From Chiloscyllium plagiosum (lineage: Eukaryota), in the NCBI RefSeq assembly GCF_004010195.1, contig NC_057719.1:35031537-35072342 (forward strand): a DNA stretch of 40,806 nucleotides, written 5' to 3'. This document shows positions 4,621 through 40,806 of the stretch, piece after piece (positions within the stretch are counted from its first letter, which is position 1; each line of letters starts with the position of its first letter). The notes beneath the pieces were generated by a model. That model did no database searches. It was not told the origin of the DNA and saw nothing but the letters and a program-made list of their open reading frames with translations. Both the position numbers and the translations under genes were made by a program.

Positions 4621-7403
4621 GTCTAGGATCAATCTCTCTGTATTGATCCTGTTAAGAATCTATTATTTTTCCAATTAGAACATCTCTTTTTCCTTAGTCT
4701 TCTCCAATGTGTTGTATTCTGTCCAAAGCTTTCTAAAATGTACATATTCTCTTCATGCCACCCCACCCGACCGAAGGAGGTACAATGGTGAGAGGAACAG
4801 ACAGGACATTCTGTGGTTACGAACCAAATTCCTGATGGTATGTTGTCTCGGGGATGCTAGGGTCAGGGATGTCTCAGATCGAGTCTACAGGATTCTTAAG
4901 GGAGAGGGGGAGGGGGAGCAGCCAGAAGTCATGGTACACATCGTATCATGACATAGCTAGAAAAAAGGATGAAGACCTGAAAAGAGAATATAGAGAGTTA
5001 GGTTGAAAGCTAAAAGGCAGGGCAAGCAGAGTAGTGATCTCAGGATTGCTACCAGTGTTACGGGTTAGCGAGGCTAGGAACAGAAAGCGAGTGCAAATGA
5101 ACACGTGGCTGCCAGGCTGATGTAGGAGGGAGCCTTCACAGATGTGGATCATTAGGATAGCTTCTGGGGAAGGTGGGACCTGTACAAGGAGGACGGGTTG
5201 CCCCTGAACTGGAGGGGCACCAATATCCTGAGCGGGTAGTTTGCTCAAGCTCTTCAGGAGGGTTTAATCAAGTTTGGCTGGGGGATGGAGTAGCTAGTAG
5301 TTTGAGGATGGAGTAGCTAGTGAACAGCCGATACAGTGTGCAGAGAGTATGTGAGGAAGGATAGACAGTTGATAGGGCAAAGTTGCAGTCAGTGTGATGG
5401 GTTGAAGTGTGTCTATTTTAACACAAGAAGTATCAGTAAAGGTGATGAACTTAGTTCCAAGTACTGATCCAAGCTCTATGATGTTGTGGTCATTATGGAG
5501 ACTTGGATATCACAAGGACAGGAATGATTGTTGAATGTTCCAGGCTTTAGATATTTCCAAACATCTAAATAGAGAGGGAGTTAAAAGAGGTGGGGGAGTG
5601 GTTTTGCAAATCAGGGGTAGTATCACAGCTGCAAAATGGGAGGTCATCGAGGTGACTGAGTCATTATGGGTTGAAGTCAAGAACAAGAAAGGAGCAGTCA
5701 TTTTCTTGGGAGTTTTTTTTAAGACTCCCTCTCCCCCCCCGCAGCAACAGAGACACAAAGGAGCAGATTGGGAGGCAGAGTTTGGAAAGGTGCAGAAATT
5801 ACAGGGTTATTGTCATGTTTGATTTTAACGTCCCTAATAACGATTGGGACTTCCTTAGTGTGAATAGTTTGGATGGAGCAGACTTTGTCAGGTGTGTCCA
5901 GGAAGGATTCCTGACTCAATATGTAGATCGGCCAACTAGAGGGGAAGCCATATTAGATTTAATGAATGGCAACAAAACAGGTCAGGTGTCGGATCTCTTG
6001 GTGGGAGAGCACTTCAGTGATCGCAACTCCCTGACCTTACTATAGTCATGGACAGGGATAGGAGCAGACAGTATAGGAAAAGGGGAGAAGGGAAATTTAA
6101 TTGGGGGAAGGAAAATTACAATAATATTAGGCAGGAACTGGGGCGCCTAAATTGGGAACACGTTCTCAGGGAAATGCATGACAGAAATGTGGAGGTTGTT
6201 TAAGGAGTACTTGCTGATAGTGCTGGTTAGGTTTGTCCCACTGAGGCGGTAAAGGAATCTAAAGTGACAAGGGATGTGGAACATCTAATCGAGAGGAAGA
6301 AGGAAACTTACTTAGGGTTAAGGAAGCAAAGATCAGACAGGGTTCTAGAGGGTTACAAGGTAATCAGGAAGGAACTGAAGAATGGGCTTAGGACTGCTTT
6401 AATGGCATGAAAAAGCTTTAACGGGTAGGATTAAGCAAAACCCTAAGGAATTCTATACTTATGTGAGGAACAAAGAGGATGGCTAAAGTGAGGGTAGGAA
6501 CCAATCAATGGAGGGAACTTGTGCCTGGAGTCAGAGGTGGTAGGGGAGGTCCTTAATAACTTTGCTTAAGTATTCACTACTGAGGGACCTTGTCGTTTGT
6601 GAGGACAGCATGAAATAGACTGATATGCTCAACCAGGTTAATGTTAAGAAGAAGAAATGCTGAAAATTTTGAAAATCGTAAGGATAGATAAGTCCCCTGA
6701 CTCAGACGGGATATAAGCAAGATTTCTATGGGAAGTGAAGAAGGAGATTGCTGTGCCTTTGGCGATGATCTTGCTTCTTCACTGTTTACTGGAGTAGTGC
6801 CAGATGATTGGAGGGTGGCAAATGTTATTGCATTGTTTAAAGAAGGGAATAGGGATAATGCTGGGAATTACAGACTAGTCAATTTTACGTCTGTGGTGGG
6901 TAAATTACTAGAAAGGATTCTGAGAGAGGGGATTTATGATTACTCGGAAAACCATAGTTTGATTAGAGATAGTCAGCGTTGCTTTGAGAGGGGCAGGTCA
7001 TGCCTCACAAGCCTTATTGAATTGAGGATGTGATAAACATATTAATGAAGGTAGAGCAGTGGATGTGGTGCATGTGAATTTTAAAAAAGCAGTTTGGTAA
7101 GGTTCCCCATGGTAGGCTCATTCAGAAAGTGAGGAGGCAGGGAAATATAGCTGCCTGGATACAGAATTGGCTGGACCACAGAAGACAGAGATAGTAAATG
7201 GAAAGTATTCAGCCTGAAGCTCCGTGATCAGTGGTATTCTGCAGGGATCTGTACTGCTCTTGTGAGCAGTACAGATCTGCTCTTGTGAGTTTTATGAAGG
7301 ACTTGAGGAGAAAGTGAGGTCTGCAGATGCTGGAGATCAGAGCTGAAAATGTGTCACTGGAAAAGCGCAGCAGGTCAGGCAGCATCCAGGGAACAGGAGA
7401 ATC

Positions 7404-7431
7404 GACGTTTCGGGCATAAGCCCTTCTTCAG
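7404..7431 (-). ncRNA. Minimal type I hammerhead ribozyme motif (PLE-associated)
   Basis: Minus strand reads CUGAAGA-A-GGGC-UUAU-GCCC-GAAACGUC: core CUGANGA, stem II, GAAA, palindromic ACGU stem III and a GUC triplet. Activity untested. Confidence 0.7.
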
Positions 7432-7507
7432 GAATGAGGAAAGTTTGTCCAGCAGGCTAAGATAAACTACCTTTTATCTTAGCCTGCTGGACAAACTTTC
7501 CTCATTC

Positions 7508-7535
7508 CTGAAGAAGGGCTAATGCCCGAAACGTC
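7508..7535 (+). ncRNA. Minimal type I hammerhead ribozyme motif (PLE-associated)
   Basis: CUGAAGA-A-GGGC-UAAU-GCCC-GAAACGUC. Confidence 0.7.
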
Positions 7536-9429
7536 GATTCTCCTGTTCCCTAGATGCTGCCTGACCTCCTGCGCTTCTCCAGCAACACATTTCCATCTCT
7601 GACCTCCAGCATCTCCACACCTCACTTACTCCATTCAGCCCATCAAACCTACTGCACCATTCAACAAGATAATGATTGATCCTGTATCTCAACGCCATAC
7701 TCCTGCTCTCTCCCCACATCCCTCAGCACCTTCAGCAACTAGAAATCCATTTATTTCCTTCTCAAATATATTCAGTGTGAAACTTGTGAAACTTGGCCTT
7801 CACAAGTTTCTGCAAGAGAGAATTCATCACCGTCTGAGTGAAGATGTTTCAGCTCCTCTGAGTCCTAGCTTGCCTACACTGCACTCTCAGATCCTCTTGT
7901 TCTAGACCCCTCTACCTCCCCAGCCAGAACCCACCTTACTCCCTCTTTGTGGGGTACGTGGAAGAGTCCATTTTCTGCAGCTACACTGGCAACATGCCCC
8001 ACCTTTCTCTCCGCTACATTGATCACTGTATCAGAACCACTTTATGCACCCACCAGGAGGTTAAACAGTTAATCAATTTCACAAACACCTTACATCCTAA
8101 CCTCAGGTTCACCTAGACCATCTCAGACACTTCCCTCACCTTTCTGGTCCACTCTGCCTCCATTTACCATGACCGACTCAACGTGGACATCTATTTCAAA
8201 CCAACTGATTCCCACAGCCATCTGGACTACATCCCCTCCTGTAAAAAAGCTATCCTTACTCCCAATTCCTCCGCTTCTACCGTATCTGATCCCAGCAGGA
8301 GCAATTCCACTCCAGAACATCCCCAATGGCCTCCTACTTGGTCAACAATGCCCTCCTGCACATCTCCTCCACCTACCACACTTCTGCCCTGGTGCCCATG
8401 GCTACTCCTTTTGTTTGGAGGAAGTGGGAGGATTGGAAGGAGAAGTTGTTCAGGGTGAGGACCAGTTCAGTCAGTCGAAGGAGGGTTACGAAGAGGCAGG
8501 CATAGCTGGGGCCTATGTGGGTGCCCATGGCTACTCCTTTCGTTTTGGAGGAAGTGGGAGGATTGGAAAGAGAAGTTGTTCAGGGTGAGGACCAGTTCAG
8601 TCAGTCGAAGGAGGGTGTCAGTGGAAGGGTACTGGTTGGTACGGCGGGAAAGGAAGAAGCGGAGGGCTTTGAGTCCTTCGTGATGGGGGATGGAGGTGTA
8701 CAGGGACTGGATGTCCATGGTGAAGATAAGGCGTTGGGGACCAGGGAAGCAAAAATCATGGAGGAGGTGGAGGGCATGGGTGGTGTCCCGAACGTAGGTG
8801 GGGAGTTCTTGGACTAAGGGGGACAGGACCGTGTCAAGGTATGAAGGACTTGGATGAGGAAGTCGAAGGGTAGGTTAGCGAGTTTGCCGATGACACATGG
8901 CAAAAAGATTGGTGGAATAGTGGATAGTGTGGAGAGCAATTGGAGGTTACAACGAGACATTGACATGATGCAGAACTGAGCTGATAAGCAGCAGATGGAG
9001 TTCAACCTGGAAAAGTGTGAAGTAATTCATTTTGAAAGGTTACATATGAATACAGAATACAGGGTTAAAGGCAGGATTCTTAGCATTGTGGATGAATAGA
9101 GGGATCTTGGGGTCAATGTCCTTAAAGTTGCCACCCAACTTGATAGGATTGATAATAAGGCGTATGGTTTGTTGGCTTTCATTAGGAAAGCAATACAATT
9201 TAAGAGCCTCAAGGTTATGCTGCAGCTCTACAGAGCTCAGGTTAGATCACACTTGGAATATTGTTCAGTTCTGGTTGCCTCTTTATAAGGATGTGAAAAC
9301 TTTAGAGAGGGTGCAGAGGAGATTTACCAGAATGCTGCCTGGACTAGAGGGCATGTCTTATGAGGAAAGCTTGCGTGAGCGAGGACTTTTCTCATTGGAG
9401 CGAAGAAGAATGAGAGATGACTTGATAGA

Positions 9430-9749
9430 GGCACAGTGGCACAGTGGTTAGCACTGCTGCCTCACAGCGCCAGAGACCCGGGTTCAATTCCCGCCTCAGG
9501 CGACTGACTGTGTGGAGTTTGCACGTTCTCCCCTTGTCTGCGTGGGTTTCCTCCGGGTGCTCCGGTTTCCTCCCACATCACAAAGATGTACAGGGTCAGG
9601 TGAATTGGCCATACTAAATTGCCCGTAGTGTTAGGTAAGGGGTAAATGTAGGGGTATGGGTGGGTTTCACTTCGGCGGGTCGGTGTGGACTTGTTGGGCC
9701 GAAGGGCCTGTTTCTACACTGTAATCTAATCTAATCTAATCTAATCTAA
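9430..9749 (+). mobile_element. Nearly full-length HE1/V-SINE inserted in the CR1 RT
   Basis: tRNA-like head, V-domain-like tgtggagtttgcacgttctcccc..tgcgtgggtttcctccgggtgctccggtttcctccca, LINE-derived tail gggccgaagggcctgtt and (TAATC)n. Confidence 0.92.
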
Positions 9750-10959: not shown

Positions 10960-11705
10960 TGAGTCATCAGATGTCATATAGATATACAGCATGGAAACAA
11001 GACCATTTGGTCCAACTTGTCCATGCCGACCAGATATCCTAAATTAACCTAGTCCCATTTGCCAGCATTTAGCCCATATCTCTCTAAACCCTTCCTATTC
11101 ATATACCTTTCAGGATGCCTTTTAAATGCTGTAATTATACCCCTCCACCACTTCCTCTGGCAGCTCATTCCATACACGCACTACTCTCTGCATGAAAATG
11201 CTGCCCCTTAGATCCCTTTTAATTTTTTCCCCTCTCACTTTAAATCTATGCCCTCTAGTTTTCAACTCCCCCACCCTGGGGAAAAGATCTTGTCTATTTA
11301 ACCTATCCATTATTTAACCTATCCATGCCCCTCATGATTTTATAAACCCCTATAAGGTCACCCCTCAGCCTCCAATGCTCAAGGGAAAACAGCCCCAGCC
11401 TATTCAACCTCTCCCTGTAGCTCAAACCCTCCAACTTTAGCAACAGCCTTGTAAATCTTTTATGAACCTTTTCAAGTTTCACAACATCCTTCCTATAGCA
11501 GGGAGACCAGAATTGTATGTAGTATTCCAACAGCGGCCTAACCAATGTCCTGTACAGCCGCAACATGACCTCCCAACTCCTATACTCAATGCACTGACCA
11601 ACAAAGGAAAGCATACCAAATGCCTTCTTCGCTTTCCTGTCTACCTGGGACTCCACTTTGAAGGAACTATGAACCTACATTCCAAGGTCTCTTTGTTCAG
11701 CAACA
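10960..11705 (-). mobile_element. 5'-truncated CR1-like LINE (RT C-terminus + 3' UTR)
   Basis: ORF 11303-11656 LYRTLVRPLLEYYIQFWSP..RLGLFSLE and ORF 11122-11310 TRGHRFKVRG; 16-bp tandem duplication tatttaacctatccat near 11295-11326. Confidence 0.92.
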
Positions 11706-15170: not shown

Positions 15171-17499
15171 GGGGGAAAATCAACTAGGAGAAAGTGAGGA
15201 CTGCAGATGCTCAAGATCAGAGTCGAGGGTGTGGTGCTGGAAAGGCACAGCAGGTCAGGCAGCATCAGAGGAGCAGGAGAATCGACGTTTCGGGCATAAG
15301 CCCTTCATCAGGAATGAGACATCTGGGCCAGGGGGACTGAGAGATAAATGGGAGGGGGCTGTAGTTGGCAGGGGAAGGTAGCTGAAAATGCAATAGGTAG
15401 ATGAAGGTAGGAGAGAAGGTGATAGGTCGGAGAGGAAGGTGAAGCGGATAGATGCAAAAGACGATGGACAGGTCAAGAGGGCGGTGCCGTGTTGGAGGCT
15501 TGGGAATGGGAGAAGATAGGGGGAGGGGAAATCAGGAAACTGGTGATATCCATATTGATCCCATGTGGTTGGAGAGCCCAAGGCAGAGTAGGAGGCATGG
15601 AAGGATGTGGAAGATTCCTTTGGGGCCTTGGGCGGAGGTGTTGTCTAGGTAGCTGTGGGAGCTCGTGGGTTTGTAGTAGATGTCCGTGGTTAATCAGTCA
15701 CCAGAGATGGAGATGGAGGGGTCTAGGAAGGAGAGGGAGGTGTCCAAGATGATCCAGGTGAATTTGAGGTAGGGATGAAAGGTGTTAGTGAAGTTGATGA
15801 ACTGTTCAACCTCCTCATGGGAGTACGGAGGTAGCATCGATACAGTCATCAATGTAGCAGAGGAAAAGATGGGGGATGGTGCCGGTGTAGCTGCCAAAGA
15901 TGGACCTTTCCAATCCCCCTGCGCCATATCTTCATCATGAACATCCAGTCTCCATATACATCTATCCGCCACGTCGAAGGCCTCCAAGCCTTCCATTTCT
16001 TCCTCTCACGCTGTCTCAACAGTTCCCTCCACTGACACCGTCATCCACCTAGCTGAACTGGTCCTCACCCTTAACTTCTCCTTCCAATCCTCCCACTTCC
16101 TCCAAACCAAAGGGGTAGCCATGGGCACCCGCATGGGTCCCAACTATTCCTGCCTCTTTGTCGGGTACATGGAACAATCCATCTTCCACAGCTACACAGG
16201 CACCATCCCCCATCTTTTCCTCCGCTACTTGGATGAATGTATCGGTGCTACCTCGTGCTCCCACGAGGAGATTGAACAGTTCATCAACTTCACTAACAAC
16301 TTTCATCCCAAGCTCAAATTCACCTGGACCATCTCAGACACCTCCCTCCCCTTCCTGGACCTCTCCACCTCCACCTCCATCTCTGGCGACCGAATAACTA
16401 CGGACATCTACTACAAACCTGGACTACAGCTCCTCCCATTTTGCCTCCTGTAAAAACGCCATCCTTTATCCCCAATTCCTCCACCTCCGCCACATCTATT
16501 CCCAGGATGACCAATTCCACCATAGAAAATTCCAGATAGTCTCCTTCTTCAAAGACTGCAATTTCCCCTCCCATGTGGTCGACAATGCCTTCCAACGCAT
16601 CTCACCCACTTGCTGCAACTCTGCCCTTGAATCCCACCCCTCTCAATGCACCAATGTACAGAACACCCCTGGTCTTCACCTTCCATCCCACCAACCTCCG
16701 TATACATTATGGCATCTTTCGCCATCTACAAATGGACCCCACCACTCGGAATATATTTCCCTCCCCACTCCTATTAGCATTTTGGAGAGACTATTCCCTC
16801 TGTGACTCCCTGGTCAGATCCTCACCCCACTCCCAGCACCTTCCCTTGCCATCGCAGGAAGTGCAAAACCTGCACCCACACCTCCCCCTCACCTCCGTCC
16901 AAGGCCCAAAGGATCCTTCCACATCCAAAAGAAATTTAAGTGTACCTCCATAAATATCATCTACTGTAACCATTGCACCAAATGTGGTCTCATCAGGGAG
17001 ACAGGATGCTAACTTGCAGATCATTTCAGAGAACATATCTGAGGCATACGCACAACCAACCCCACTGCTGAATACTTTAACTTCTCCTCCCACTCATCAA
17101 GGACATGCCAAACCCTAACCACTCAACAGCTGGAGGAAGAAGGCCTCATTCTCTGCCTTGGGAACTTGTAACCACACGGAATTAATGTGAATATCATCAG
17201 TTTCCTCATTTTCCTTCCCCTCACCTTATCTCAGTCCCAAGCCTCCAACTCTGCACCACCCTCTTGGCCTGCCCATAGTCTTTCCCATCTATCAGCTCCA
17301 CCTTCCTCTCCGATCCATCACCTTCGCCCCCATCTTCATCGACTTATTGCAATCTCAGCCACCTTCTCCCCAGCCCCAACCCTCTCCCATTTATCTCTCA
17401 GCATCATTCCTGGTGAAGGGCTTATGCCCAAAATGTTGATTCGCCTGCTCCTCGGATGCTGCCTGACCTGTTGTGCTTTACCAGCATCACACTAATTGA
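15171..17499. mobile_element. Penelope-like retrotransposon with inverted architecture: - strand pLTR + RT piece (~15186-15895) joined to + strand RT, GIY-YIG and pLTR (~15900-17492); dead
   Basis: PLE RT motifs KGVAMGTRMGPNYSCLFVGYME, RYLDECIG, PFLDL, TDIYYKP; GIY-YIG-like IIYCNHCTKCG near 16955; inverted pLTRs at both ends; TSD cacatatcaggtaaa (15156-15170) / cacacatcaggtaaa (17500-17514). Confidence 0.9.
15284..15311 (-). ncRNA. Minimal type I hammerhead ribozyme motif with intact core, on the NEMF sense strand
   Basis: CUGAUGA-A-GGGC-UUAU-GCCC-GAAACGUC. Confidence 0.72.
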
Positions 17500-20400: not shown

Positions 20401-20443
20401 AATTTCTCACATATATTTGAAATCCATATTAAATGAAAATTAC

Positions 20444-20990
20444 CTCTTTGACTGAAGATGCGACAGATCAATAGCTGTGTCAGGATAACTAAATTTTGCA
20501 TTTTCTTCTTCATCCTGATCTATCTCAACCTTCTGCAAATCTCCAGAATCGTTCAGATCATCCTCCTTTTTAGCTGGTTTGTCCAATTCATCTTCGGCCT
20601 TGCCCTTTTGGTCGTTTGCAGTCACTTGCACCTCTTTGCACTGCTTGTTATCAGTTTCTGTACTGACCTCTTTCTCATCACCACTACTGCTCTCAGTGTC
20701 CTGGTGATCCGCTGCATCTCTTTGCACCTCTTCATGCTGGTTGTTTTCAGCTTCAGTACTGGTCTCTGTATCATCAGAACTACTGCTATCATCATTGTTC
20801 TGTTGAACATCTGCAACCCTGTGCAGCTCTTTACACTGGTCTTTTCCAGCTTGTGTAGGAGCCTCTTTGTCATCATCACTACTGCTCTCATCCTGCTGAT
20901 CTTCTCCAATCCCCTTCATCTCTTCACAATGATTGTTTCCAGCTTCTGTACCAGTCTCCTTGTTTTCATCGCTACTGCTTTCATCATTGT
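20444..20990 (-). CDS. NEMF: NEMF exon 7: large acidic low-complexity exon with internal 4x tandem repeat, ending FSYPDTAIDLSHLQSK(R)
   Basis: The end matches conserved YPDTTIDLSHLQ. Acceptor aatcag at 20991, donor GTAATT; 547 nt open frame, phase 1 to 2, matching both neighbours. Confidence 0.92.
20600..20990 (-). repeat. Coding tandem repeat, 4 units of 93-99 bp, within NEMF exon 7
   Basis: Anchor ctactgct (AGCAGTAG on - strand) at 20972, 20879, 20780 and 20684; periods 93, 99 and 96 bp. Confidence 0.9.
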
Positions 20991-22444
20991 CTGATTGGGC
21001 TTAACAAAATAGTTTTGAATTACAATTTGCATTAATCATAGTGCATTGATATTAATGAAGCAAATCACATTTTATAATGTAAGCTAAAAATTTAGACAAT
21101 GATGTATGGACACACGAACTGCAAAATTAATACACACACACAAATATATATATTCTGTATATACATTCAATATACAGAAAGTTAAGTTTAACTAATATAG
21201 GTTGTATGGCTATACATAATTCTGATGTTCTCCTCTACACCAATAAAGCAGTAAAATATTATACTCCTGTTTGGAGTCATTATGGAAAGGTTTATAATAT
21301 TATCAAAAGATAGTTCACTTTCTTTTAAGATCATAACTTTCTCATTGCCTAACAGCTCAATGGCTTGAATCTTTGCATTTCAAAAAGTTATCTTTCATAC
21401 TTTTGAATGCTATTGCAGGAGCAGAATTTCAGTGAAAGAAAAGGACAAACCGGAATCATGGCCCATTTTGGGGTAGTAGTGAACCAGAAAACTGTCAATA
21501 TTGGTCTTCATAATTGGTCACTACTTTGAAAGTGGGAGAAATTTCAGGAGTCTGCATATGAACAGTTGAACACAGAAATCTAGATGATTAGATGCTTTAC
21601 CAACTGATGCACTGTTGATGCACCCAATCTGCAATGATTTATAAATTACTGAGCAAGCAAGAACTTACTTTTTCACCAAAAATCTCATATCAGAAACATT
21701 TGACACAAAAAGTTACAACTTGTTGAACAGGGTGCAACTGTTTTTATTGGATGTACTAAGTTCATAATTATTACTGAATTGTATCTGAAAAACAGTTTTG
21801 GAAATCAATCATTGAGGAGAAAGGTGCTAGGGAAGCTGGGAAAAAAAAATTCAATATTTTAAAATCAGTTTAAATGTTTAAAACTTCTACCTTAATCCCA
21901 CGTTTATTTCCAAATTTTGATCTTGCTCTCTGAAGTAATACATTAAATAATGACGATCACCCAAGACATATAGTTAAAACATTTCCAGTATTTAAGATAC
22001 AAATACAAACCAAAACCCAGATTCTTCAAAAAGTTATCAATAGTTCTGTGGAAGAAGATGTCATTGTTTAAAGCAACTGCCATTTTGCAACAAAAGCTTT
22101 TTATTATAGTCACATCGCATGTTTTCAGGCTTGTGCACAATATTTTTAATGTACTCCTGTAGGGCATATTATGCAAATCATAATTCAGCAAGGGAACTGA
22201 AAATGTATGGTAAATTAGGTCACTGAATTTTACTTAGCTCAGGTTTTGATTATCAACAGATTCATCCTTTCTATTTCATATTTCTAAAGAGTAGAATTAG
22301 TGACCAGCCATACAGTTGCTGTAAAGCTATGTATACATCACACCATGCTCATTAAAAACTTTATAACAGATTAATGCTACTGGTATCACTCAAAATGTTG
22401 CATTACAGATGGCAATATTTCGGGTGAAAGTATACCAATAAATA

Positions 22445-24570
22445 TAGATAGAGAATTAGGCCATTTGGTCTATTGAGTCTGCTCTGCCATTCAATCACGA
22501 CTAACAGGTTTTTAATTTTCCTGCCTTATCCCCATAATCCTTAATCCCCTCACCAATCAAGAACCTATCTATCTGTCTTAAATAAGCTCGAGGACTTGGC
22601 CTCCACAGCCCTCTGCAGCAATGAGTTCCATAAATTAACCACCCTCTGGCAAAAGAAACTCATTATCTCAGTTCTAAAGGGTCATCCCTTCAACTCAGAG
22701 GCTGTGTCCTCGGGTCCTGGTATTTCCTACTCGTCTCTTCACCAATCCACTCTATCGAGGACTCTCAGTTCTGTAGGTTTCAATCAGATTCCCTCCATAT
22801 CCTTCCAGACTCCAAAAGTCCGCAACTGTTCCTCATACACAAGCCCTCCATCCCTGGGATCATGCTTGTAAACGTTCTCTGGACCCCCCTCCAATGCAGC
22901 ACATCCTTCCTTAGATATGGGGCTCAAAACTGCTCGCAATATTAAAAATGCGATCTGACTACAGCCTTATCCAGCAGTACATTTCTGCTTTTGTATCCTA
23001 ACCTTCTTCAAACGAATTGTATTTGTCTACCTAACTGCCAGTTGAACCTGCATGTTAAACTTAAGAAATAGGACTCCCAAATCCCTTTTGAGCTTCAGAC
23101 TTCCAAAGCCTTTCCCAGTTTAGAAAATAGTCTACGCCTCTATTCTTCCTATTGAAGTGTACAACCTTACACTTTCCTCATATTCCATCTTCCACTCCTT
23201 TGCCCACTCTCCTAGCCTGTCGAAGAACTTGGACAGCTTCCCCACTTCTACTACGTTACCTGTCCCCTACCAATCTTTGTCTCATTTGCAAACATAGCAG
23301 CAATACCCTCAGTTCCTTTGTCCACAGCGTTAATATTTAACATGTATAGTTGCGGTCCCAACATTGACTTTTGTAAAACTCCACTCGTCCTTTCATGGAA
23401 CTTTAATCCTCATTGGCTGACTGACAGCAGGCAGACAGTCCTCTAACTGTGTCAGTACCTTGCCCCATGGGCTCTTACTTTATTTAGCAGCCTCCTGTGC
23501 GGTACCTTATCAAGGCTTTCTTGAAATCCAAATAGATCACAGCCACTGGCTCTTCTTTGTCTAACGTGCTTGTTAGCTCCTCAAAGAATTAGAGCATATT
23601 TGTCACGCATTGACCTCCCTTTGACGAAGCGGTGCTTACTCAGCCCTATTTTACTATGCACCTCTAAGTACTCCTCAAACTCAACCTTAATAAAGTCAGT
23701 CAAAAAGTGTGGTGCTTGAAAAGAACAGCAGATCAGGCAGCATCTGAGGAGCAGGAGAGTTGACGTTTCAGGAGTAAGCCCTTCACCAGCAACATTTCTA
23801 ATGAGGGACTTATGCCAGAAACATCGACTCTCCAGCTGTGCTTTTCCAGTGCCACACATTTCGACTCTGATCTCCAGTATCTGCAGTCCTCATTTTCTCC
23901 TTAACAACAGGACTCTAAAATCATACCAATGACTGAGGTCAGGTTAATGGGCTTTTAGTTTCCTATCTTTTGGCTCCATCCCTTCTTCAACAGGAGTGTT
24001 ACATTAGCCATTTTCCAGTCCTCTGGGACGCTCTCCGACTCCAGTGATTCCTGAAAGATTACCGCCACAATCTCTTCAACTATCTACTTCAGAACTCTGG
24101 GGTGTAGTCCATCTGGTCTGGGTAATTTATCCCCCTTCAGATCTTTCAGCTTCCCCAGCATCTTCTCCTTAACGACGGCTCCTACCTTTGCCACCTGACT
24201 CTCCTGAAGTTCTCATATGCCACTGGTGTCTTCCACTGCGGAAATTGATACAAAATACCTATTCAGTTCCTCCACCATTCTTTTGTTCCCATTATTACTT
24301 CTCCGCCCTCATTTTCCAGCAGTTCTCTTCCTTTTCGAGATCTAAAAAAGCTTTTGCCATCTTCTTTTAAATTGCTAGCTAGCTTACTCTCATAGTTCAT
24401 ATTCTCCCCCCGCATTGCTTTTTTTAGTTATCTTTTGCTGTTCTCTTTAAAAGCCTTCCCAATAATCTTCATCATTTTGTATGTTTTCTCTCTGTTCCAG
24501 GCTTCCCTTGTCAGCCATCGTTACTTCGCCCTCCCCTTGATATGTTTCTTCTTCCTGGAGATGAATTTCT
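22445..24570 (-). mobile_element. Decayed CR1-like LINE (RT + 3' UTR), interrupted at 23694-23898
   Basis: Minus-strand SKHRFVKGRS and PEDWKMANVTLL-type RT motifs; CR1 tail at ~22450-22700. Confidence 0.85.
23694..23898. mobile_element. Fold-back Penelope pLTR-derived element (family A) with two degenerate hammerhead cores
   Basis: gtgtggtgcttgaaaagaacagc...gacgtttcaggagtaagcccttcaccag followed by inverted ctaatgagggacttatgccagaaacatcgac...gctgtgcttttccagtgccacac; imperfect TSD ccttaataa (23685-23693) / ccttaacaa (23899-23907). Confidence 0.8.
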
Positions 24571-24792: not shown

Positions 24793-24909
24793 CTAGGTAC
24801 AAAAAAAAAACCTATGATATTTATTAGGAAATAGTAACTTACCAAGCAAGATACTTGCAAATGTTCTCTTCTTGACTATTTTTGAGTAGAAGTACAAACT
24901 TTCACAAGA

Positions 24910-25690
24910 TAAGAGCAAGCGTGAGGTGATGCATTTTAGGAGGTCAAATGCATGAGGTAAGTATGCTGAAATGGATGGACACTTAAGAGCATTGATATAC
25001 AGATGGATCTTGTGGTCCAAGTAGAAGGGCAACAGTTTAGAAAGATGTTAAAAAGACATACAGAATTCTCAGCTTTATAAATAGATGCAGAGTGCACAAA
25101 AGCAAGGAAGTTACGATGAAATGTTGCAATTGGAGAAGTTTGTATAATTCTAGCTAACACACTCTAGGCAGGATGTGAAGGTTTTAGAGGGAGTTCAGAA
25201 AAGATTTACAAAAATGATTCAATAGAAGACAAGCTTTAATTATGTGAATAATTGCAAAAGGTGGAAAGTTTTTGCCTTAGGGAAGGATATCAATAAATTT
25301 GACAGAAGTGTTAAAATCACGAGGGATCCATTAAGACAAGAAATAAATGCTGGCCCAGTAAGGCCCAGATCCCGTTACGGAGTTTTTAAAAAAACGGTGT
25401 AAAAGGTTGAGAACACGAAGACACAACCCAATGTTAGTGGCGCAAGAACCAAAGGCAATAAGAGGAATATCATTTTTACACTGACTGGTTAGGATCTGGA
25501 ATACATTTCATGCAAGTCTGGTTTTAATTGTCGCCTTCAGAAAGGAAACTGGATAAGCACCCTGAAGAGGAAATAAATTACAAGCCTACAGAGAAAGGGA
25601 ATGGAAACAGAATTAGTTGAGTTATTCTTACAAAGAACTAGTATGGACAGGACAGGTTAAATTGCCTGCTACTGTGCTGTAACTATTCTA
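24910..25690 (+). mobile_element. Old CR1-like 3' fragment
   Basis: Degenerate LEGVQKRFTKMI and 3' tail ctgtgctgtaactattcta. Confidence 0.65.
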
Positions 25691-25858
25691 CAACTGAACC
25701 CACTCCATTCAGTTTCTAGTTGTATTGGAGGGGAGGGCTGTGTCTGAACAAATACCTTGCACTTCCTGACAGGCTGTTTAACATAGGAATTTCAGCTCCT
25801 ACTGTAAATGACACTGTATAAATACATTCCATACAAACTAATTTACTATCACACTTTA

Positions 25859-26166
25859 TGATGTGGAGATGCCGGTGTTGGACTAGGGTGGACAAAGTTA
25901 AAAATCACACAACACCAGGTTATAGTCCAACAGGTTCATTTGGAATTACTAGCCTTCAGAGCGTTGCTTCCTCATCAGATAACTACTGGGGCAGGATCAT
26001 AAGATACAGAGTTTATAGCAAAAGATCCCGGGATCTTTTGCTATAAATTCTGTGTCTTATGATCCTGCACCAGTATTTACCTGATGAAGGAGCAATACTT
26101 TTGAAAGCTAGTACTTTTAAATGAACTTGTTGACACGATAACCTGGTGTTGTATGATTTTTAACTT
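25859..26166. mobile_element. Fold-back hammerhead-bearing PLE-like element (family C), 308 bp, perfect 12-bp TSD
   Basis: TATCACACTTTA at 25847-25858 and 26167-26178; arms are inverted around a perfect 36-bp palindrome at 26012-26047; core CUGAUGA-AGGAG-CAAUA-CUUUU-GAAAGCUA at 26081-26110. Confidence 0.85.
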
Positions 26167-26277
26167 TATCACACTTTAGCACAACCGCCAAATATAATTC
26201 AGGGGTCCAACTATATTTGGTGTTTCAGTTTTCATCTTTTTCCACCTTAAGTTTCTAGAAAAGTAGTAATACATTAC

Positions 26278-26336
26278 CTTAAATAAAAAGCCAAATCCCA
26301 TCATAAGATAAGAAGGTGGAAGATAGTTCTTTTTAC
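26278..26336 (-). CDS. NEMF: NEMF exon 5: [20 protein letters not shown]
   Basis: Conserved motif; tttcag acceptor, GTAATG donor; 59 nt, phase 1 to 0. Confidence 0.97.
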
Positions 26337-26761
26337 CTGAAAACACAAAGAAATGGTATAAAATTTATTTTGGAGATCAAGCAATAACTAACAACAACAA
26401 CACATCTGCAAAGCATTACACAACCAAATCAGATTAAAAAAAGAAAATCATGCAAATTACCATCATGCTGAAAACATTTCCAACTTCAAACCTTCCCACA
26501 TTGAATTAATGCAGTTATTTTAGCCAAATCAAAATAATTCACAACCTACCTGGCCTTCTAACCTTATATGACTATCTGGGAAGGGAATCAACATCTCTTG
26601 ACAAAAAGTATTCTTTTAAACAAATTAAGGTTTATATTTGAAAATGATTTGTGGTAGAAAATCTCAGGTTGAAAAATCTAAAATAATGGAAGTATCATAT
26701 TCATAATCAAAATGTCAAATTATCAAGCCACTAAATCAAGATGAATATCGGTAACATTCTA

Positions 26762-26872
<111 letters not shown>

Positions 26873-28399
26873 TTATGGTTATTTTGAAACAGATGTAAAT
26901 AAAAAATATGAGCCAATGTGTGTCAAATACTATTGAATAAGCAGCTCAACATTTGCAATTCTGCTGTCAAACATTTCCGACTATACCCTGATCATGGAAT
27001 GATGCTGTAAAAATCAAGGCCAGGTTATTTTTTTCATCAAAAAAAACCACAAAAGATTGGTATGAAATGTCACCCCACATGAAATGTCACACTGATTTTA
27101 GAACTGTTCAGTTTGGCAGCTTAAATCATGACCCTGAGGAATTCATCATTTCTGCTAGCTTCAAAACTACAAGAGATAGTTCTCCTATAAAGGTCATAGT
27201 TGAGTTCCAGCGAAAGCTCGCTTAATAGAAAATCACTTAACAGAAATAATGGGGCCTATAGAAAAAGTGGAATTAGGAGCAGACGACAAAAAAAAACATT
27301 CACAATCATGCAAAGATCACCAAAAGCCTAACAAAGTATAGGACAGCCTGAATGAAGGTTGAAATCATATTTATTAATGAAACAGAAGTAAAGTGAACAC
27401 ATTACATTGAAAAAATATTGTTAATGCAGGGACAGAGGGTCATCATCATCACTACCTTCAGGTGCAGTTGCACTTGCAGAAGTGGACAGCTTTGGTTGAT
27501 TGAGAGATATACAGGTACAAGAACAAATTAGAAAGGCAAATAGTTTGCATAAGAGTAATGCAGTCCTGAAGGAATAATGCAGGTCTTATACAGGAATTAT
27601 ACAAGTATATTCTTGCATCAGAGGGAAAGCAATGAACATTAATTAGTTTAATTTTTGAGCTAAAGTGCTCAATGTACAATATGGTACCTTCCATATTCTC
27701 TGACAGCAGCGGACATTGACACATGCAGAATGGCGTGGAGACTTCTGCGTTTACATGGCGCATGCGCAGATTGGTGCAGAGATTTTAGTGGAAACACAGA
27801 ACAAAGCGTGCAAAACGCACACCGCTGGAATCACACTATTGTGAACAGGCATAAGCATTCTTGAAAATACCATTCCCTAATTCTTTAGCGACATTGTAGC
27901 CAAATTGCCCTGCCGAAATACGCTTTATTTGAGAACTACCTGTACGTTACAGTGCCATATCAGTGTGAGAAAACATTTTGTCTAATCTGTTTTAAATGGT
28001 TAATCCCTTACTTGTAAACAGGGACCAATCTAGGTACCAGATGGAAGACTGACATGATATAAACTAAGGTTAAGACCTTGAAGAAAAACAGGCATACAGG
28101 TCTAATGTCATTTATCTTAGCAGTAGTGAAGTTAATGTGAGCCCAAGATCAGATCTTATGGGCCAAACAATCTATTTTTTCTTCTTCACAAATTAGCTCA
28201 AATAAGTGAATAATCAAATAAATTCACTTTAAGATGTGAAATACAAACCACTAGAGAATGATTTGGTGGGTTGGGAAGGGAATGAGGATTGTAAAAGAGA
28301 AATAACTTGGTGTTTGCCACAACATAAGGAAGAAGATCTGTTCATGCCTGCAGTTACACAAACAAGTAGTTACCAACCACTGCTACACAGTTGTGTGAA

Positions 28400-32469: not shown

Positions 32470-32969
32470 NNNNNNNNNNNNNNNNNNNNNNNNNNNNNNN
32501 NNNNNNNNNNNNNNNNNNNNNNNNNNNNNNNNNNNNNNNNNNNNNNNNNNNNNNNNNNNNNNNNNNNNNNNNNNNNNNNNNNNNNNNNNNNNNNNNNNNN
32601 NNNNNNNNNNNNNNNNNNNNNNNNNNNNNNNNNNNNNNNNNNNNNNNNNNNNNNNNNNNNNNNNNNNNNNNNNNNNNNNNNNNNNNNNNNNNNNNNNNNN
32701 NNNNNNNNNNNNNNNNNNNNNNNNNNNNNNNNNNNNNNNNNNNNNNNNNNNNNNNNNNNNNNNNNNNNNNNNNNNNNNNNNNNNNNNNNNNNNNNNNNNN
32801 NNNNNNNNNNNNNNNNNNNNNNNNNNNNNNNNNNNNNNNNNNNNNNNNNNNNNNNNNNNNNNNNNNNNNNNNNNNNNNNNNNNNNNNNNNNNNNNNNNNN
32901 NNNNNNNNNNNNNNNNNNNNNNNNNNNNNNNNNNNNNNNNNNNNNNNNNNNNNNNNNNNNNNNNNNNNN
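32470..32969. other. Assembly gap (500 N)
   Basis: Run of N. Confidence 1.
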
Positions 32970-33735
32970 CATTTTCAAGGCACTAAAACTTCAATAGTGT
33001 GCTCTTCTATGTTTCCATGAAAAAGTACATTTGCACCAGGGGAAGTCTGATTTTGGTGGCAAGTAGGTATAAATCTGGATTTTTTTTTACCAGAAGGTGG
33101 GAGATTATCTTATACATGTGACATACGAAATGGTAAGGATTTTTGGCCAAATGTTAATGCAAGAATTTGCAGAAGATCAACTATTATTTTAATATACATG
33201 GCACTTAAGTTCTCTTGAGAAAAGTCAGTCGTGGCAGAATTATTGTAAGCAACCTCTAATAAAGTAAACCCAAGTTAATTGCATTTTTTAATTTTAATAA
33301 ATGATTGTTATTTGCAAATGTACTATTTGGGGAACTATAGGGATAGAGAAGTTGGCTGACAAGCCCAAAACATTCCCAGTGCCCCTGAGCTGTATCCTGC
33401 TAATAACACCATTCCATCCCATTCACTCATATTTACTGTGTTTATTTGGCACCGCAACACATTCTTTTTTACTGGCAGGATATTTCACAAAGTGCACAAG
33501 AGCAGAACTATCCTTGAGAACCTTCTAGGTTATCAGAAGACTGAGTCATGGAAATAATTTATCTGCAGTTTTTTTTAAAAACATTGTTTACATCTCCTAA
33601 ACCATGAACAATTTATGTAGAGAACCAATTCCTACCCCGTCCACCTCTTTTCTTTGCACAAGTAGCACATAAATAGTTCTCATAGTATTTTAAATACTAA
33701 TACTTTTTACTGGTGTAAGTAGGCACTACTTCGAT

Positions 33736-34381
33736 TTGCCAAGTGGACAGGATTGTTAAGAAAGCATATGGTGTTTTGGTTTTCATTAACAGGGGGATTG
33801 AGTTTAAGAGCTATGAGATCTTGTTGCAGCTCTATAAAACTTTGGTTAGACCACACTTGGAATACTGTGTCCAGTTCTGGTCACCCTATTACAGGAAAGA
33901 TGTGGATGCTTTGGAGAGGGTTCAGAGGAGGTTTACCAGGATGCTGCCTGGAATGGAGGGCTTATCTTACGAAGAGAGGTTGACTGAGCTCGGACTTTTT
34001 TCATTGGAAAAAAGGAAGAGAGGGGATCAATTGAGGTGTACAAGATAATGAGAGGTATAGATAGAGTTGATAGCCTGAGACTTTTTCCCAGGGCAGAAAT
34101 TGTTAACACGAGGGGTCTTAGTTTTAAGCTGTTTGGCGGAAAGTATAGAGGGGATATCAGAGGCGGTCTTTTTATGCAGACAGTTGAGAGAGCACGGAAT
34201 GCGTTGCCAGCAGCAGTTGTGGAAGCGAGGTCATTGGGGATATTTAAGAGACTGCTGGACATGCATATAGTCACAGAAAGTTGAGGGTTCATACATTAGG
34301 TTTACCTTACATGAGGATCAATGGTCAGCACAACATCGTGGGCTGAAGGGCCTGTTCTGTGCTGTACTCTTCTGTGTTCTA
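33736..34381 (+). mobile_element. 5'-truncated CR1-like LINE (RT C-terminus + 3' UTR)
   Basis: ORFs 33743-34048 (LVRPHLEYCVQFWSPYYRKDVDALERVQRRFTRMLPG) and 34036-34284; tail gggctgaagggcctgttctgtgctgtac. Confidence 0.93.
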
Positions 34382-35357
34382 ATCCCTCCCTGGCTCAGAC
34401 TAAGCCACATTTCACAAACTAGTTTTCTATTTGATCCAGAGATAAGTTTCCAGCCCAATAACCTCTTCTGTAACCAACAAACCTCCCAAGCCATCCACTT
34501 TCGATTGTCTCTGTCCACATCTACTTGTCTCTTTCCCTGCATTATCCATGCCTTTGTTGTATATCGACTTCACTAAATATACTTGAATTCATTTGAAACT
34601 TTGCTACCCAAATTTTAAGTCCCACCAAGCTTCTGTTGTCCATTAATCTGCTCAATGACCTACAATGACTGCTGGTTCGGCTACATCCTGATGTTAAAAT
34701 TCTCAACTTCCCTCCATGACCCTACCCTCCCACTTTCTAACATCCTCAGCTCTACAATCTTCCCAGTTCTTGTCATAAAACCATACAACATGCAAACAGA
34801 CCCTTTGGTTCAGCTCATCTATGCTGACCACATTTCCTAAACTAAACTAAATTCCCATTTTGGGCTGTTTGGCTCAGTTCTCTCTAAAACCTGCCTATTC
34901 ATGTACCTGTCCAAATGTCTTTTAAATATTCAACTGTACCTTCATCTACCACTTCCTCAGGCAGTCATTCCACATATGAACGACCTTGTGTGTGAAAACG
35001 TCGCCCCCTCATATCCCTTTTAAATCTATCTTTCTTCTCTCACCTTAAAAATATGCACGCTAGTTTTGAACTTGTCACCCTACGAACAATACCCTGGCTA
35101 TTCACTTTATCTATGCTCCTCATGATTTTAAAAACCTCTATAAAACCTCAACCTTCTATGCTCCAGTAAAAATAGCCCAGCTTACCTAACCTCTCCTTAT
35201 AACTCAAACTCTCCAGTCCCAGCAATACCCTGGTAAATTTTGCTGAACTCTCTTTAATTTAATAATATCCCTCCTATAGCCGGGCAACCAGAACTGAATA
35301 CAGTATTCCACAAGTGGTCTCACCAGCATCCTGTTCAATTGCAACATGACATCCCAA

Positions 35358-36907
35358 TGGTCTTTGTGTGGAGCCGCAGAAAATGGGGGAGATACTAAAT
35401 GAGTATTTGCATCAGTATTCACTGTGGAAAAGGATATGGAAGATATAGCATGTAGGGAAATAGATGGTGACATCTTGAAAAATGTCCATATTACAGAGGA
35501 GGAAGTGCTGGATGTCTTGAAATGGTTAAAAGTGGATAAATCCCCAGGACCTGATCAGGTGTACCCGAGAACTCTGTGGGAAGCTAAGGAAGTGATTGCT
35601 GGGCCTCTTGCTGAGATAGTTGTATCATCGATAGTCACAGGTGAGGTGCCAGAAGACTGGAGGTTGGCAAACATGGTGCCACTCTTTAAGAAGGGTAGTA
35701 AGGACAAGCCAGGGAATTATAGACCAGCGAGCCTGACATCGGTGGTGGACAAATTGTTGGAGGGAATCCTGAGGGACAGGATGTACATGTATTTGGAAAG
35801 GCAAGGACTGATTCGGNNNNNNNNNNNNNNNNNNNNNNNNNNNNNNNNNNNNNNNNNNNNNNNNNNNNNNNNNNNNNNNNNNNNNNNNNNNNNNNNNNNN
35901 NNNNNNNNNNNNNNNNNNNNNNNNNNNNNNNNNNNNNNNNNNNNNNNNNNNNNNNNNNNNNNNNNNNNNNNNNNNNNNNNNNNNNNNNNNNNNNNNNNNN
36001 NNNNNNNNNNNNNNNNNNNNNNNNNNNNNNNNNNNNNNNNNNNNNNNNNNNNNNNNNNNNNNNNNNNNNNNNNNNNNNNNNNNNNNNNNNNNNNNNNNNN
36101 NNNNNNNNNNNNNNNNNNNNNNNNNNNNNNNNNNNNNNNNNNNNNNNNNNNNNNNNNNNNNNNNNNNNNNNNNNNNNNNNNNNNNNNNNNNNNNNNNNNN
36201 NNNNNNNNNNNNNNNNNNNNNNNNNNNNNNNNNNNNNNNNNNNNNNNNNNNNNNNNNNNNNNNNNNNNNNNNNNNNNNNNNNNNNNNNNNNNNNNNNNNN
36301 NNNNNNNNNNNNNNNNNNNNNNNNNNNNNNNNNNNNNNNNNNNNNNNNNNNNNNNNNNNNNNNNNNNNNNNNNNNNNNNNNNNNNNNNNNNNNNNNNNNN
36401 NNNNNNNNNNNNNNNNNNNNNNNNNNNNNNNNNNNNNNNNNNNNNNNNNNNNNNNNNNNNNNNNNNNNNNNNNNNNNNNNNNNNNNNNNNNNNNAGGGAG
36501 AGGCTGAACAAGCTGGGGCTGTTTTCTCTGGAGCGTCGGAGGCTGAGGGGTGACCTTATAGAGGTTTACAAAATTATGAGGGGCATGGATAGGATAAATA
36601 GACAAAGTCTTTTCCCTGGGGTTGGGGATTCCAGAACTAGAGGGCACAGGTTTAGGGTGAGAGGGGAAGATATAAAAGAGACCTAAGGGGCAACATTCTC
36701 ACACAGTGTGGTACGTGTATGGAATGAGCTGCCAGAGGAAGTAGTGAGGGCTGGTACAACTGCAACATTCAAAAGGCATTTGGATGGGTATATGAATAGG
36801 AAGGGTTTGGAGGGATATGGGACTAGATTGGGTTGGGATATCTGGTCAGCATGGATGCGTTGGACCAAAGGGTCTGTTTCTGTGCTGTATGTTTCCATGA
36901 CTCTATG
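35358..36907 (+). mobile_element. Relatively young CR1/HER1-like LINE RT + 3' UTR spanning an assembly gap
   Basis: Open frame KSPGPDQVYPRTL..VPEDWRLANMVPLFKKGSKDKPGNYRPASLTSVV; after the gap ERLNKLGLFSLERRRLRGDLIEVYKIM. Confidence 0.92.
35817..36494. other. Assembly gap (678 N)
   Basis: Run of N. Confidence 1.
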
Positions 36908-39309: not shown

Positions 39310-40558
39310 AAATGATAAAATTGGCCATTTAAACAGACAAACTGATAAGCTAGCAGCAAATCTTACAAATCCTTCAGTTAATAAGATTCGCTACAAATTT
39401 GTTAAAAATGCTTCAATCATCGAAATTAAATATACCTTCATAAATGCATTAGAATATTAGAAGTTGACAGAAGTTGATACAAAAAGCACAAGATTCAGAA
39501 TGGATTAAAAAACTGCTGTTTTAATAAATGCACTGAAATCAAATTCAATTTCAAAATACTTTAAACAGATGACTGGTATCTGTACTTTTCACCAACATCC
39601 AATCAAGTAATGCACTGGCCTGGATCTTGCACAACTTGCTCCTGATCCTGATCCTGCCACAAAAGATAAGCAATCTCTGTGGAGTGGATTTCCTTTTCTT
39701 TATGCCAGGTTTAATTCATGCCAAATCAAGGTGACCTTCAGCAACAATTTGATGCCATTAAACAGGACAAGCGTTCAATCACTACGAAGCATCGTTATTA
39801 TGCCAATTATGATAATAGAGAAATCTGATATTTTAACATAAAATTAGCTTTGCAGGGCCTATAAAGCTGTATTGTAGTGATTACAGACTTAAAATGCTGC
39901 TTAAAATCCTAGCTACACCTTATTCAACAAAACATGCATTAAGAAGTTGCAAATTTATACTTATTGATTTATGTTACAGACTGTAATTTATTGGAGTACA
40001 GAAAGATCCTTCAGCTATTTGATAGTGTAGCGTGCAAGCAGATTGTGTTTTCATTTCTCTGAGGCTTGAAGCTAGTCCAACTTTGCAAGATAAAGACCTC
40101 TGTTGCACGGTGACTGCATGTATTCTTAATAAAATACAGATGGAAGCTTAACTTCACACCTCATACAAGCAAAACTGTCCTAAAATCTACCAATGGCTTG
40201 ATATTACATCTTCTAGCAGGGTGAGGAAAGTGTGCTTTATTTAAAGTGTTTTGAATGGGAGTTATCATATTGCTTCAGTACATAAAGCAATATGTTAAAG
40301 GATGCAGCTTGCACTGATATTTTCATCACAGCCACCTCCTGATCTTAGCAAAGCTGTTATTGGGAGAATCCAGTACCTTCTTACAGGAAAGAGAAAATGA
40401 AAAAAACGAGAAGAGATCAATTCAATGCATGAGAAAAACTGATTTTGATGAAAAATTGGATTCTTGTTTAATGCTGTTGGTATTGGCATTGGCATTAAAC
40501 ATTTATCAAGTCTCGTTTCAGAACAAAGTTCCCTTCACTTGGCCTGGTTTCAGATAAT

Positions 40559-40806
40559 GGAGAAAGTGAGGACTGCAGATGCTGGAGATCAGAGCTGAAA
40601 ATGTGATGCTGGAAAAGCGCAGCAGGTCAGGCAGCATCCAAGGAGCAGGAGAATCAACATTTAGGGCATGAGCCCTTCTTCAGGAATGAGGAGAGTGTGC
40701 CAAGCAGGATAAGATAAAAGGTAGGGAGGAGGGACTTGGGGGAGGGGCATTGGAAATGCGATAGGTGGAAGGAGGTTAAGGTGAGGGTGATAGGCCGGAG
40801 TGGGGG
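40559..40806 (-). mobile_element. Penelope pLTR (family A), truncated by the window edge; degenerate hammerhead at ~40656-40683
   Basis: Near-identical to 7307-7466; continues into a purine-rich PLE 3' region like 15330-15540. Confidence 0.85.

Follow-up and report, generated by a model that had tools for sequence, protein, structure and literature searches.

A fold-back insertion with a hammerhead-like core on each strand in a shark NEMF intron: probable remnant of an abortive inverted Penelope-like element insertion

Positions 25859–26166 of the window (the whole stretch of 40,806 nucleotides from Chiloscyllium plagiosum that was analysed) hold a 308-bp fold-back insertion, which very probably dates from one ancient event, in which a Penelope-like element (PLE) with an endonuclease entered an intron of the shark NEMF gene and was dead on arrival. 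The stub is non-replicating, and the hammerheads in it were carried along with the pLTR. An abortive inverted PLE insertion was one of two readings that an earlier note on this DNA had put forward, and it is supported by a one-sided tail, two classes of family ends, a target site duplication (TSD), a rare junction and the second family found in the window. The arm family is putatively assigned to PLEs on the basis of its tail, hammerhead and TSD and by analogy with the neighbouring RT-bearing family. The parts of the locus are as follows, with the basis of each call in brackets.

24793–26277, minus strand: host NEMF intron, 1,485 bp, holding the insertion; upstream exon 26336–26278 (protein match and mapping)
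25847–25858, plus strand: left TSD copy, 10–12 bp, its last base maybe from the element (repeat search; family ends at 25858/25859)
25859–25894, minus strand: 36-bp PLE 'tail' present on this side only, with an AC-rich sense strand (arm alignment; family end classes 25858/9 and 25894–25897)
25895–26029, minus strand: left arm, the family's 5'-truncated pLTR-like end, sense strand outward (arm and family alignments)
25947–25981, minus strand: minimal type I hammerhead in decay, with GAAG in place of GAAA and a broken stem II, on the NEMF pre-mRNA strand (motif and stem inspection)
26012–26047, no strand: perfect 36-bp palindrome at the head-to-head junction, with a 4-bp self-complementary core, CCGG (palindrome search, family contigs)
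26030–26166, plus strand: right arm, a second copy, inverted and tail-less (arm and family alignments)
26078–26113, plus strand: decayed minimal type I hammerhead (motif and stem inspection)
26167–26178, plus strand: right TSD copy (repeat search)

The fold-back insertion, its flanking repeat and its 36-bp centre, all described in the earlier note, were confirmed by repeat search and arm alignment. The insertion is bounded by the 12-bp direct repeat TATCACACTTTA, which has just two occurrences in the window, and an exact repeat of 10 bp lying no more than 5 bp from each insertion end has a chance probability of about 3e-4. Because most family copies start at 25858, the putative TSD is set at 10–12 bp, and a single base at either edge of it may belong to the element. 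No empty site was seen among the aligned contigs, which barely cover the right flank there. The arms do fold back on each other as the note had stated, but it overlooked the 36 bp at the left end (25859–25894), which remain unpaired and have no mirror partner at the right in the arm alignment. None of the six frames of the insertion stays free of stops for more than 61 codons, in agreement with the note's view that it holds no credible coding content. Within the window, the arm family has neither a further copy nor a longer one, and there is no tandem array at the locus.

This layout, a 5'-truncated copy with an adjacent inverted copy and a short TSD in AT-rich DNA, is that of an endonuclease-bearing PLE insertion. 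Inverted pLTRs with a tail and TSD, palindromes at the junction and hammerhead pairs on opposite strands have all been published already. Arkhipova 2013 (PMC3846280) describes inverted pLTRs with a tail, an 8–10-bp TSD and inverted-junction palindromes, and Craig 2021 (PMC8557442) describes PLEs with an optional 30–40-bp tail. The shark locus shares with such insertions the head-to-head inverted copies, the 30–40-bp tail at one end, a TSD near 10 bp and the junction palindrome, but unlike them it consists of the two ends only and has no ORF.

The tail and the ends were compared with other copies by aligning 4 of the 24 listed sequencing runs to 25643–26392 (750 bases) at 80% likeness. X1 and X5 are contigs of organism A, X9 contigs of organism B and X21 raw single-cell RNA of A; 71,490, 54,169 and 60,903 contigs were aligned in X1, X5 and X9, respectively. 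The arms are part of a very abundant family with two fixed end points, which lie about 36 bp from each other. The commonest loose ends, beyond which the flanks are AT-rich and unrelated, fall at 25858/9 (1541 in X1, 823 + 380 in X5, 1447 + 772 in X9) and at 25894–25897 (652 + 580 + 507 in X1, 363 + 347 in X5, 681 in X9). The locus takes one of these classes at each end, tailed at the left and tail-less at the right. An optional one-end tail of 30–40 bp combined with two fixed end classes is a PLE feature, and here it is seen as a 36-bp tail in three runs. The two end classes match both the optional PLE tail (PMC8557442) and the two RT start sites described as the limits of the tail in the green anole Poseidon element PAc (Frangieh 2024, PMC11167929). 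According to the same paper, PAc cuts and extends both target strands, and the hammerhead is dispensable for insertion in vitro. PAc resembles the shark family in having two fixed end points around an AC-rich tail downstream of the hammerhead and in its AT-rich targets; unlike the PAc ORF, which starts at the hammerhead, the ATG of the locus core meets a stop within a few codons.

Several smaller observations concern the family ends. In three DNA runs, the sequence preceding the tailed end shows a weak consensus with (T/A)TAGTC as its last letters, which may reflect either a target preference or self-insertion; TTATAGTC is present within the element at 25920–25927. In X21, poly-T loose ends lie at 25920 and 25923 (321 and 263 reads), and the family letter T at 25937 creates AATAAA on the sense strand 12–15 nt upstream of them. 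Family copies seem to provide a poly(A) site, located after the hammerhead and before the two end points; the signal is absent from both arms of the locus copy. Exact searches gave 0 matches to the junction pattern in metagenome contigs and 0 to the arm pattern in metagenome, genome and viral contig collections, which are not animal genomes and so are uninformative here. A literature search found no description of the shark's arm family, which may be catalogued in Repbase or Dfam.

The two arms, 25895–26029 and 26030–26166, differ in 20 of 137 columns (14 transitions, 4 transversions and 2 gaps). Counted per 20 columns from the centre outward, the differences number 1, 2, 3, 6, 4, 3 and 1; the most diverged portion is the middle, ribozyme-bearing one, and the outermost 29 columns contain a single difference. 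The earlier note had the outer arms diverged around a conserved centre, which is wrong, and proposed arm-to-arm correction. The central perfect run of 18 bp is marginally long (P = 0.048, permutation), conservation of the inner 40 columns is not significant (P = 0.10), and divergence shows no gradient with distance along the arms (P = 0.32). With no gradient and near-identical outermost columns, arm-to-arm correction was rejected as unsupported; the central symmetry needs no such process. The listed family contigs match the locus up to 26022–26027 and resume at 26032–26035, so that only the 4-bp CCGG is unmatched. Rare departures from the family are common to both arms at 25937 and 25986, where 97% and 95% of the X1 depth reads another letter, consistent with one source RNA or subfamily.

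The junction is rare compared with the arms. Summed contig depth, which is not copy number and in X1 leaves some differences and joints uncounted, is 73.4, 88.2 and 34.3 at 26032 in X1, X5 and X9, against 4431, 9917 and 8082 at 26016. The centre thus has 1.7, 0.9 and 0.4% of the depth found 16 bp away, and this is an upper bound, because some family contigs reach 26032 without crossing it. Relative to the single-copy flank (depth 4.04, 25.2 and 11.7), the depth at 26032 is 18-fold in X1, 3.5-fold in X5 and 2.9-fold in X9; some of it, at the least, is due to family contigs whose alignment runs up to the GATC (joint 25909–26032), and one contig per run reads T at 26032. Among the 24 pieces listed (there are 187,779 more), one crosses the centre, is identical to the locus and has a depth of 5.85. 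Of the 15 joints listed (from 273), 7 link the left to the right arm elsewhere, each in 1–2 contigs per run. The depth and joint data leave room for a few copies with a similar centre or for tandem units.

An assembly artefact at the centre was considered and is unlikely, since an X5 contig, from another sample, reads 25921–26044 across the centre with 0 differences. It extends 15 letters past the centre, short of the 31 letters of the tool's bridging rule, and a 31-mer assembly would have to stop there within the 36-bp palindrome. X5 has a depth of 175–257 over a NEMF exon (26268–26342) versus 25 in the intron; it may therefore hold RNA or captured DNA and is a poor guide to copy number. In X21, a poly(A) library of which about 2% was read and which circles would escape, no aligned read covers 26032 and read starts and ends do not pile up. 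Of the 2,248 X21 reads aligned, 1,453 are less than 90% alike and hence come mostly from other family copies. In X1, X9 and X5, respectively, 24, 14 and 1 contigs join a tailed end to a tail-less one on the other strand, each at about single-copy depth; among the 15 joints listed, none is of like with like. These joints could be either tandem units or repeated insertions into one target.

A second hammerhead-bearing family is represented in the window by four inverted insertions (453–575, 7307–7632, 15187–17492 and 23704–23901); further pieces of it lie at 7936–8830 and 40556–40806. The four insertions have four different junctions, of which the one near 530 is nearly symmetric, so inverted stubs with variable centres are routine in this window. 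The tail of this family, about 42 bp, is found at one end only in three of the four insertions and at both ends in the other. Its hammerhead has a palindromic ACGU, and the core at 15311–15288 (minus strand) is intact. The insertion at 15187–17492 holds an RT piece, whose 110 longer relatives include proteins that carry both RT and GIY-YIG. The ORF of the family contains a CxxxxCxxC linker, tied to Neptune-type PLEs in Craig 2021 (PMC8557442), and a GIY-YIG-like remnant. A Pfam search with six ORF pieces from the window matched one, to RVT_1 at E 0.016, which fails the cut-off.

An insertion of this kind could arise as follows. The element endonuclease would cut an AT-rich target with a stagger of 10–12 bp, RT would start inside the RNA 3' region at the family's two fixed points, giving a tailed and a tail-less end, and both cDNA copies would stop after about 135–170 nt and be joined head to head. 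Two like cDNAs would anneal symmetrically only at a self-complementary word, and a join at the self-complementary GATC-CCGG-GATC would by itself yield a spacerless palindrome. Snap-back with a 4-nt loop that chances to be palindromic (1 in 16) would have the same outcome. The palindrome probably came from the joining of two separately primed cDNAs, which is favoured on two grounds, that the tail-less ends form a fixed class and that both strands are cut and extended by the anole protein; self-priming by snap-back is a weaker but real contender. The earlier note spoke only of a snap-back origin, which is kept here as one of two mechanisms; the two fixed end classes are explained no less well if both target nicks served as primers. 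Palindromes at inverted PLE junctions are interpreted as self-priming in Arkhipova 2013 (PMC3846280). The locus itself, one fossil among thousands, is of minor weight. The thousands of short insertions of this family, with fixed outer ends and variable centres, would allow a direct statistical test of how PLEs form their inverted ends, by self-priming or from two joined primed cDNAs.

The hammerhead-like core that the earlier note had placed on each strand is present where it was claimed, by motif and stem inspection. On the plus strand it consists of CTGATGA at 26081–26087 and GAAA-GCTA at 26103–26110, and on the minus strand of CTGATGA at 25978–25972 and GAAG-GCTA at 25957–25950; CUGAUGA occurs once per strand. 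The plus-strand hammerhead keeps its core, the palindromic AGCU and a stem I of 3 bp, while its stem II is reduced to three G-U and one A-U pair, with G10.1-C11.1 lost. The family's version is predicted to be more intact. From its commoner letters one reads a minimal type I hammerhead close to the end, as in PLEs, with a 5-bp stem II, palindromic AGCU and a stem I of CAC/GUG, to which UAC/GUA here is a compensatory pair; 92% of the aligned X1 depth has the GAAA letter at 25954, versus GAAG in the left core. Rfam returned 0 matches at gathering score across the window, so the ribozyme call is based on inspection of motif and stems. With the limit raised to E 10, the region 25000–27000 gave five weak Rfam matches, none of them a hammerhead, which were rejected as chance fits (three are microRNA models that fit the hairpin). 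Minimal hammerhead pairs 100–700 bp apart on opposite strands have been linked to truncated PLEs (Cervera 2014, PMC4209133). Those described there share with the shark cores the CUGAUGA, one extra base, stem II, GAAA, a palindromic 15.2–16.2 and a short stem I; unlike them, both copies at the locus are decayed.

The predicted fold of the insertion RNA is extremely stable (−174.5 kcal/mol, z −19.6; 0 of 100 shuffles equally stable). Whichever strand is transcribed, the core sits in the arm made second and is predicted to be paired (unpaired probability no higher than 0.17), also in an RNA that stops directly after stem I. The predicted cost of opening the two cores is 17.6 and 24.4 kcal/mol. 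Both ribozyme cores are decayed and, by this modelling, locked within the hairpin, and a single core per strand is unable to excise a monomer.

These properties bear on the other reading of the earlier note, a non-autonomous, retrozyme-like hairpin, here taken as a fixed 308-bp unit amplified via RNAs of both polarities that its ribozymes process. In its favour are the presence of a core on either strand, a depth at 26032 above single copy and the opposite-strand joints, such as tandem units would give. Amplification as a fixed-length unit is contradicted by the bound on centre depth (0.4–1.7% of that at 26016) and by the turn-round points elsewhere; in addition, the lone decayed core of each strand is predicted to be paired once stem I is made and cannot release a monomer, and in X21 no aligned read covers 26032 and read starts and ends form no pile-up. 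In animal retrozymes, the units are direct tandems and each has its hammerhead on the same strand (Cervera 2020, PMC7229834; Li 2026, bioRxiv 2026.07.22.740005), which would place at least two hammerheads on one strand where the locus has one CUGAUGA. These non-LTR retrozymes resemble the insertion in being about 300 bp long, non-coding and low in GC, with a type I hammerhead and a relation to PLEs, but the locus is a single inverted pair in which each strand has one core, masked and decayed. An independently amplified hairpin of this type is thus very unlikely. A related reading, in which some fold-back PLE stubs of the arm family were re-copied as whole units and the locus is a decayed monomer, is about as improbable. 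The joints of tailed to tail-less ends would then be tandem units, read-through RNA would carry repeated hammerheads on both strands, and the product would be a viroid-like retrozyme, bipolar and rod-shaped, of PLE origin; if true, this would connect PLEs with rod-like RNAs whose ribozyme cores occur on both polarities.

It is also improbable, if slightly less so, that a longer inverted PLE insertion was later shortened at the DNA level, its centre being made symmetric after insertion by cruciform cutting and hairpin repair or by replication fold-back. A long inverted insertion does exist in the window (15187–17492), the 18-bp central run is marginally long, and the 4-bp core is unmatched by the listed family contigs. 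Against this stand the lack of a divergence gradient along the arms, the short stubs with varied centres common in the window and the 15% divergence of the arms out to their ends, which argues against recent recopying of one arm. Least likely of all is a fold-back DNA transposon of the MITE type, mobilised through its terminal inverted repeats by a transposase. The inverted arms, TSD and lack of an ORF would suit such an element, but the ends of the insertion are not mirror images, with 36 unpaired bases at the left terminus only, and the copies of the family vary at their inner ends and contain a hammerhead and a poly(A) signal that seems to be in use.

The host gene was recognised from the ORF at 20443–21000, which is 93% identical to a carpet shark NEMF-like protein (the best of 16 matches, all from cartilaginous fishes). 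Protein mapping puts the insertion inside the NEMF intron, 99 bp from the donor of exon 26336–26278. As the intron is on the minus strand, the host pre-mRNA carries the whole hairpin together with the left-arm core. A PDB search with the NEMF exon gave 0 matches. The NEMF exons span 4138–38836 on the minus strand, and the one at 20443–21000 contains a 99-bp tandem repeat of 2.7 copies that lengthens an acidic region. In organism B, the left flank continues into the tail with 4 differences in 238 bases; the left junction is shared by the two species. The arm-to-arm distance is 0.15, and if the arms were identical at insertion, the event would be several times older than the species split, a ratio inflated by CpG decay.

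Left-flank contigs (25643–25882) in the three contig runs have 10 letters more than the window; distances from their ends suggest that the gap probably lies left of 25785, outside the TSD, and it may be a private deletion or an assembly error. There are two N gaps, near 32470–32970 and 35820–36500. Decayed LINE fragments, which we take to be CR1-like, lie at 4679–7033, 9050–9451, 11303–11674 and 33719–36698. The 137-bp stem, 99 nt from the NEMF 5' splice site, could be a candidate substrate for A-to-I editing.
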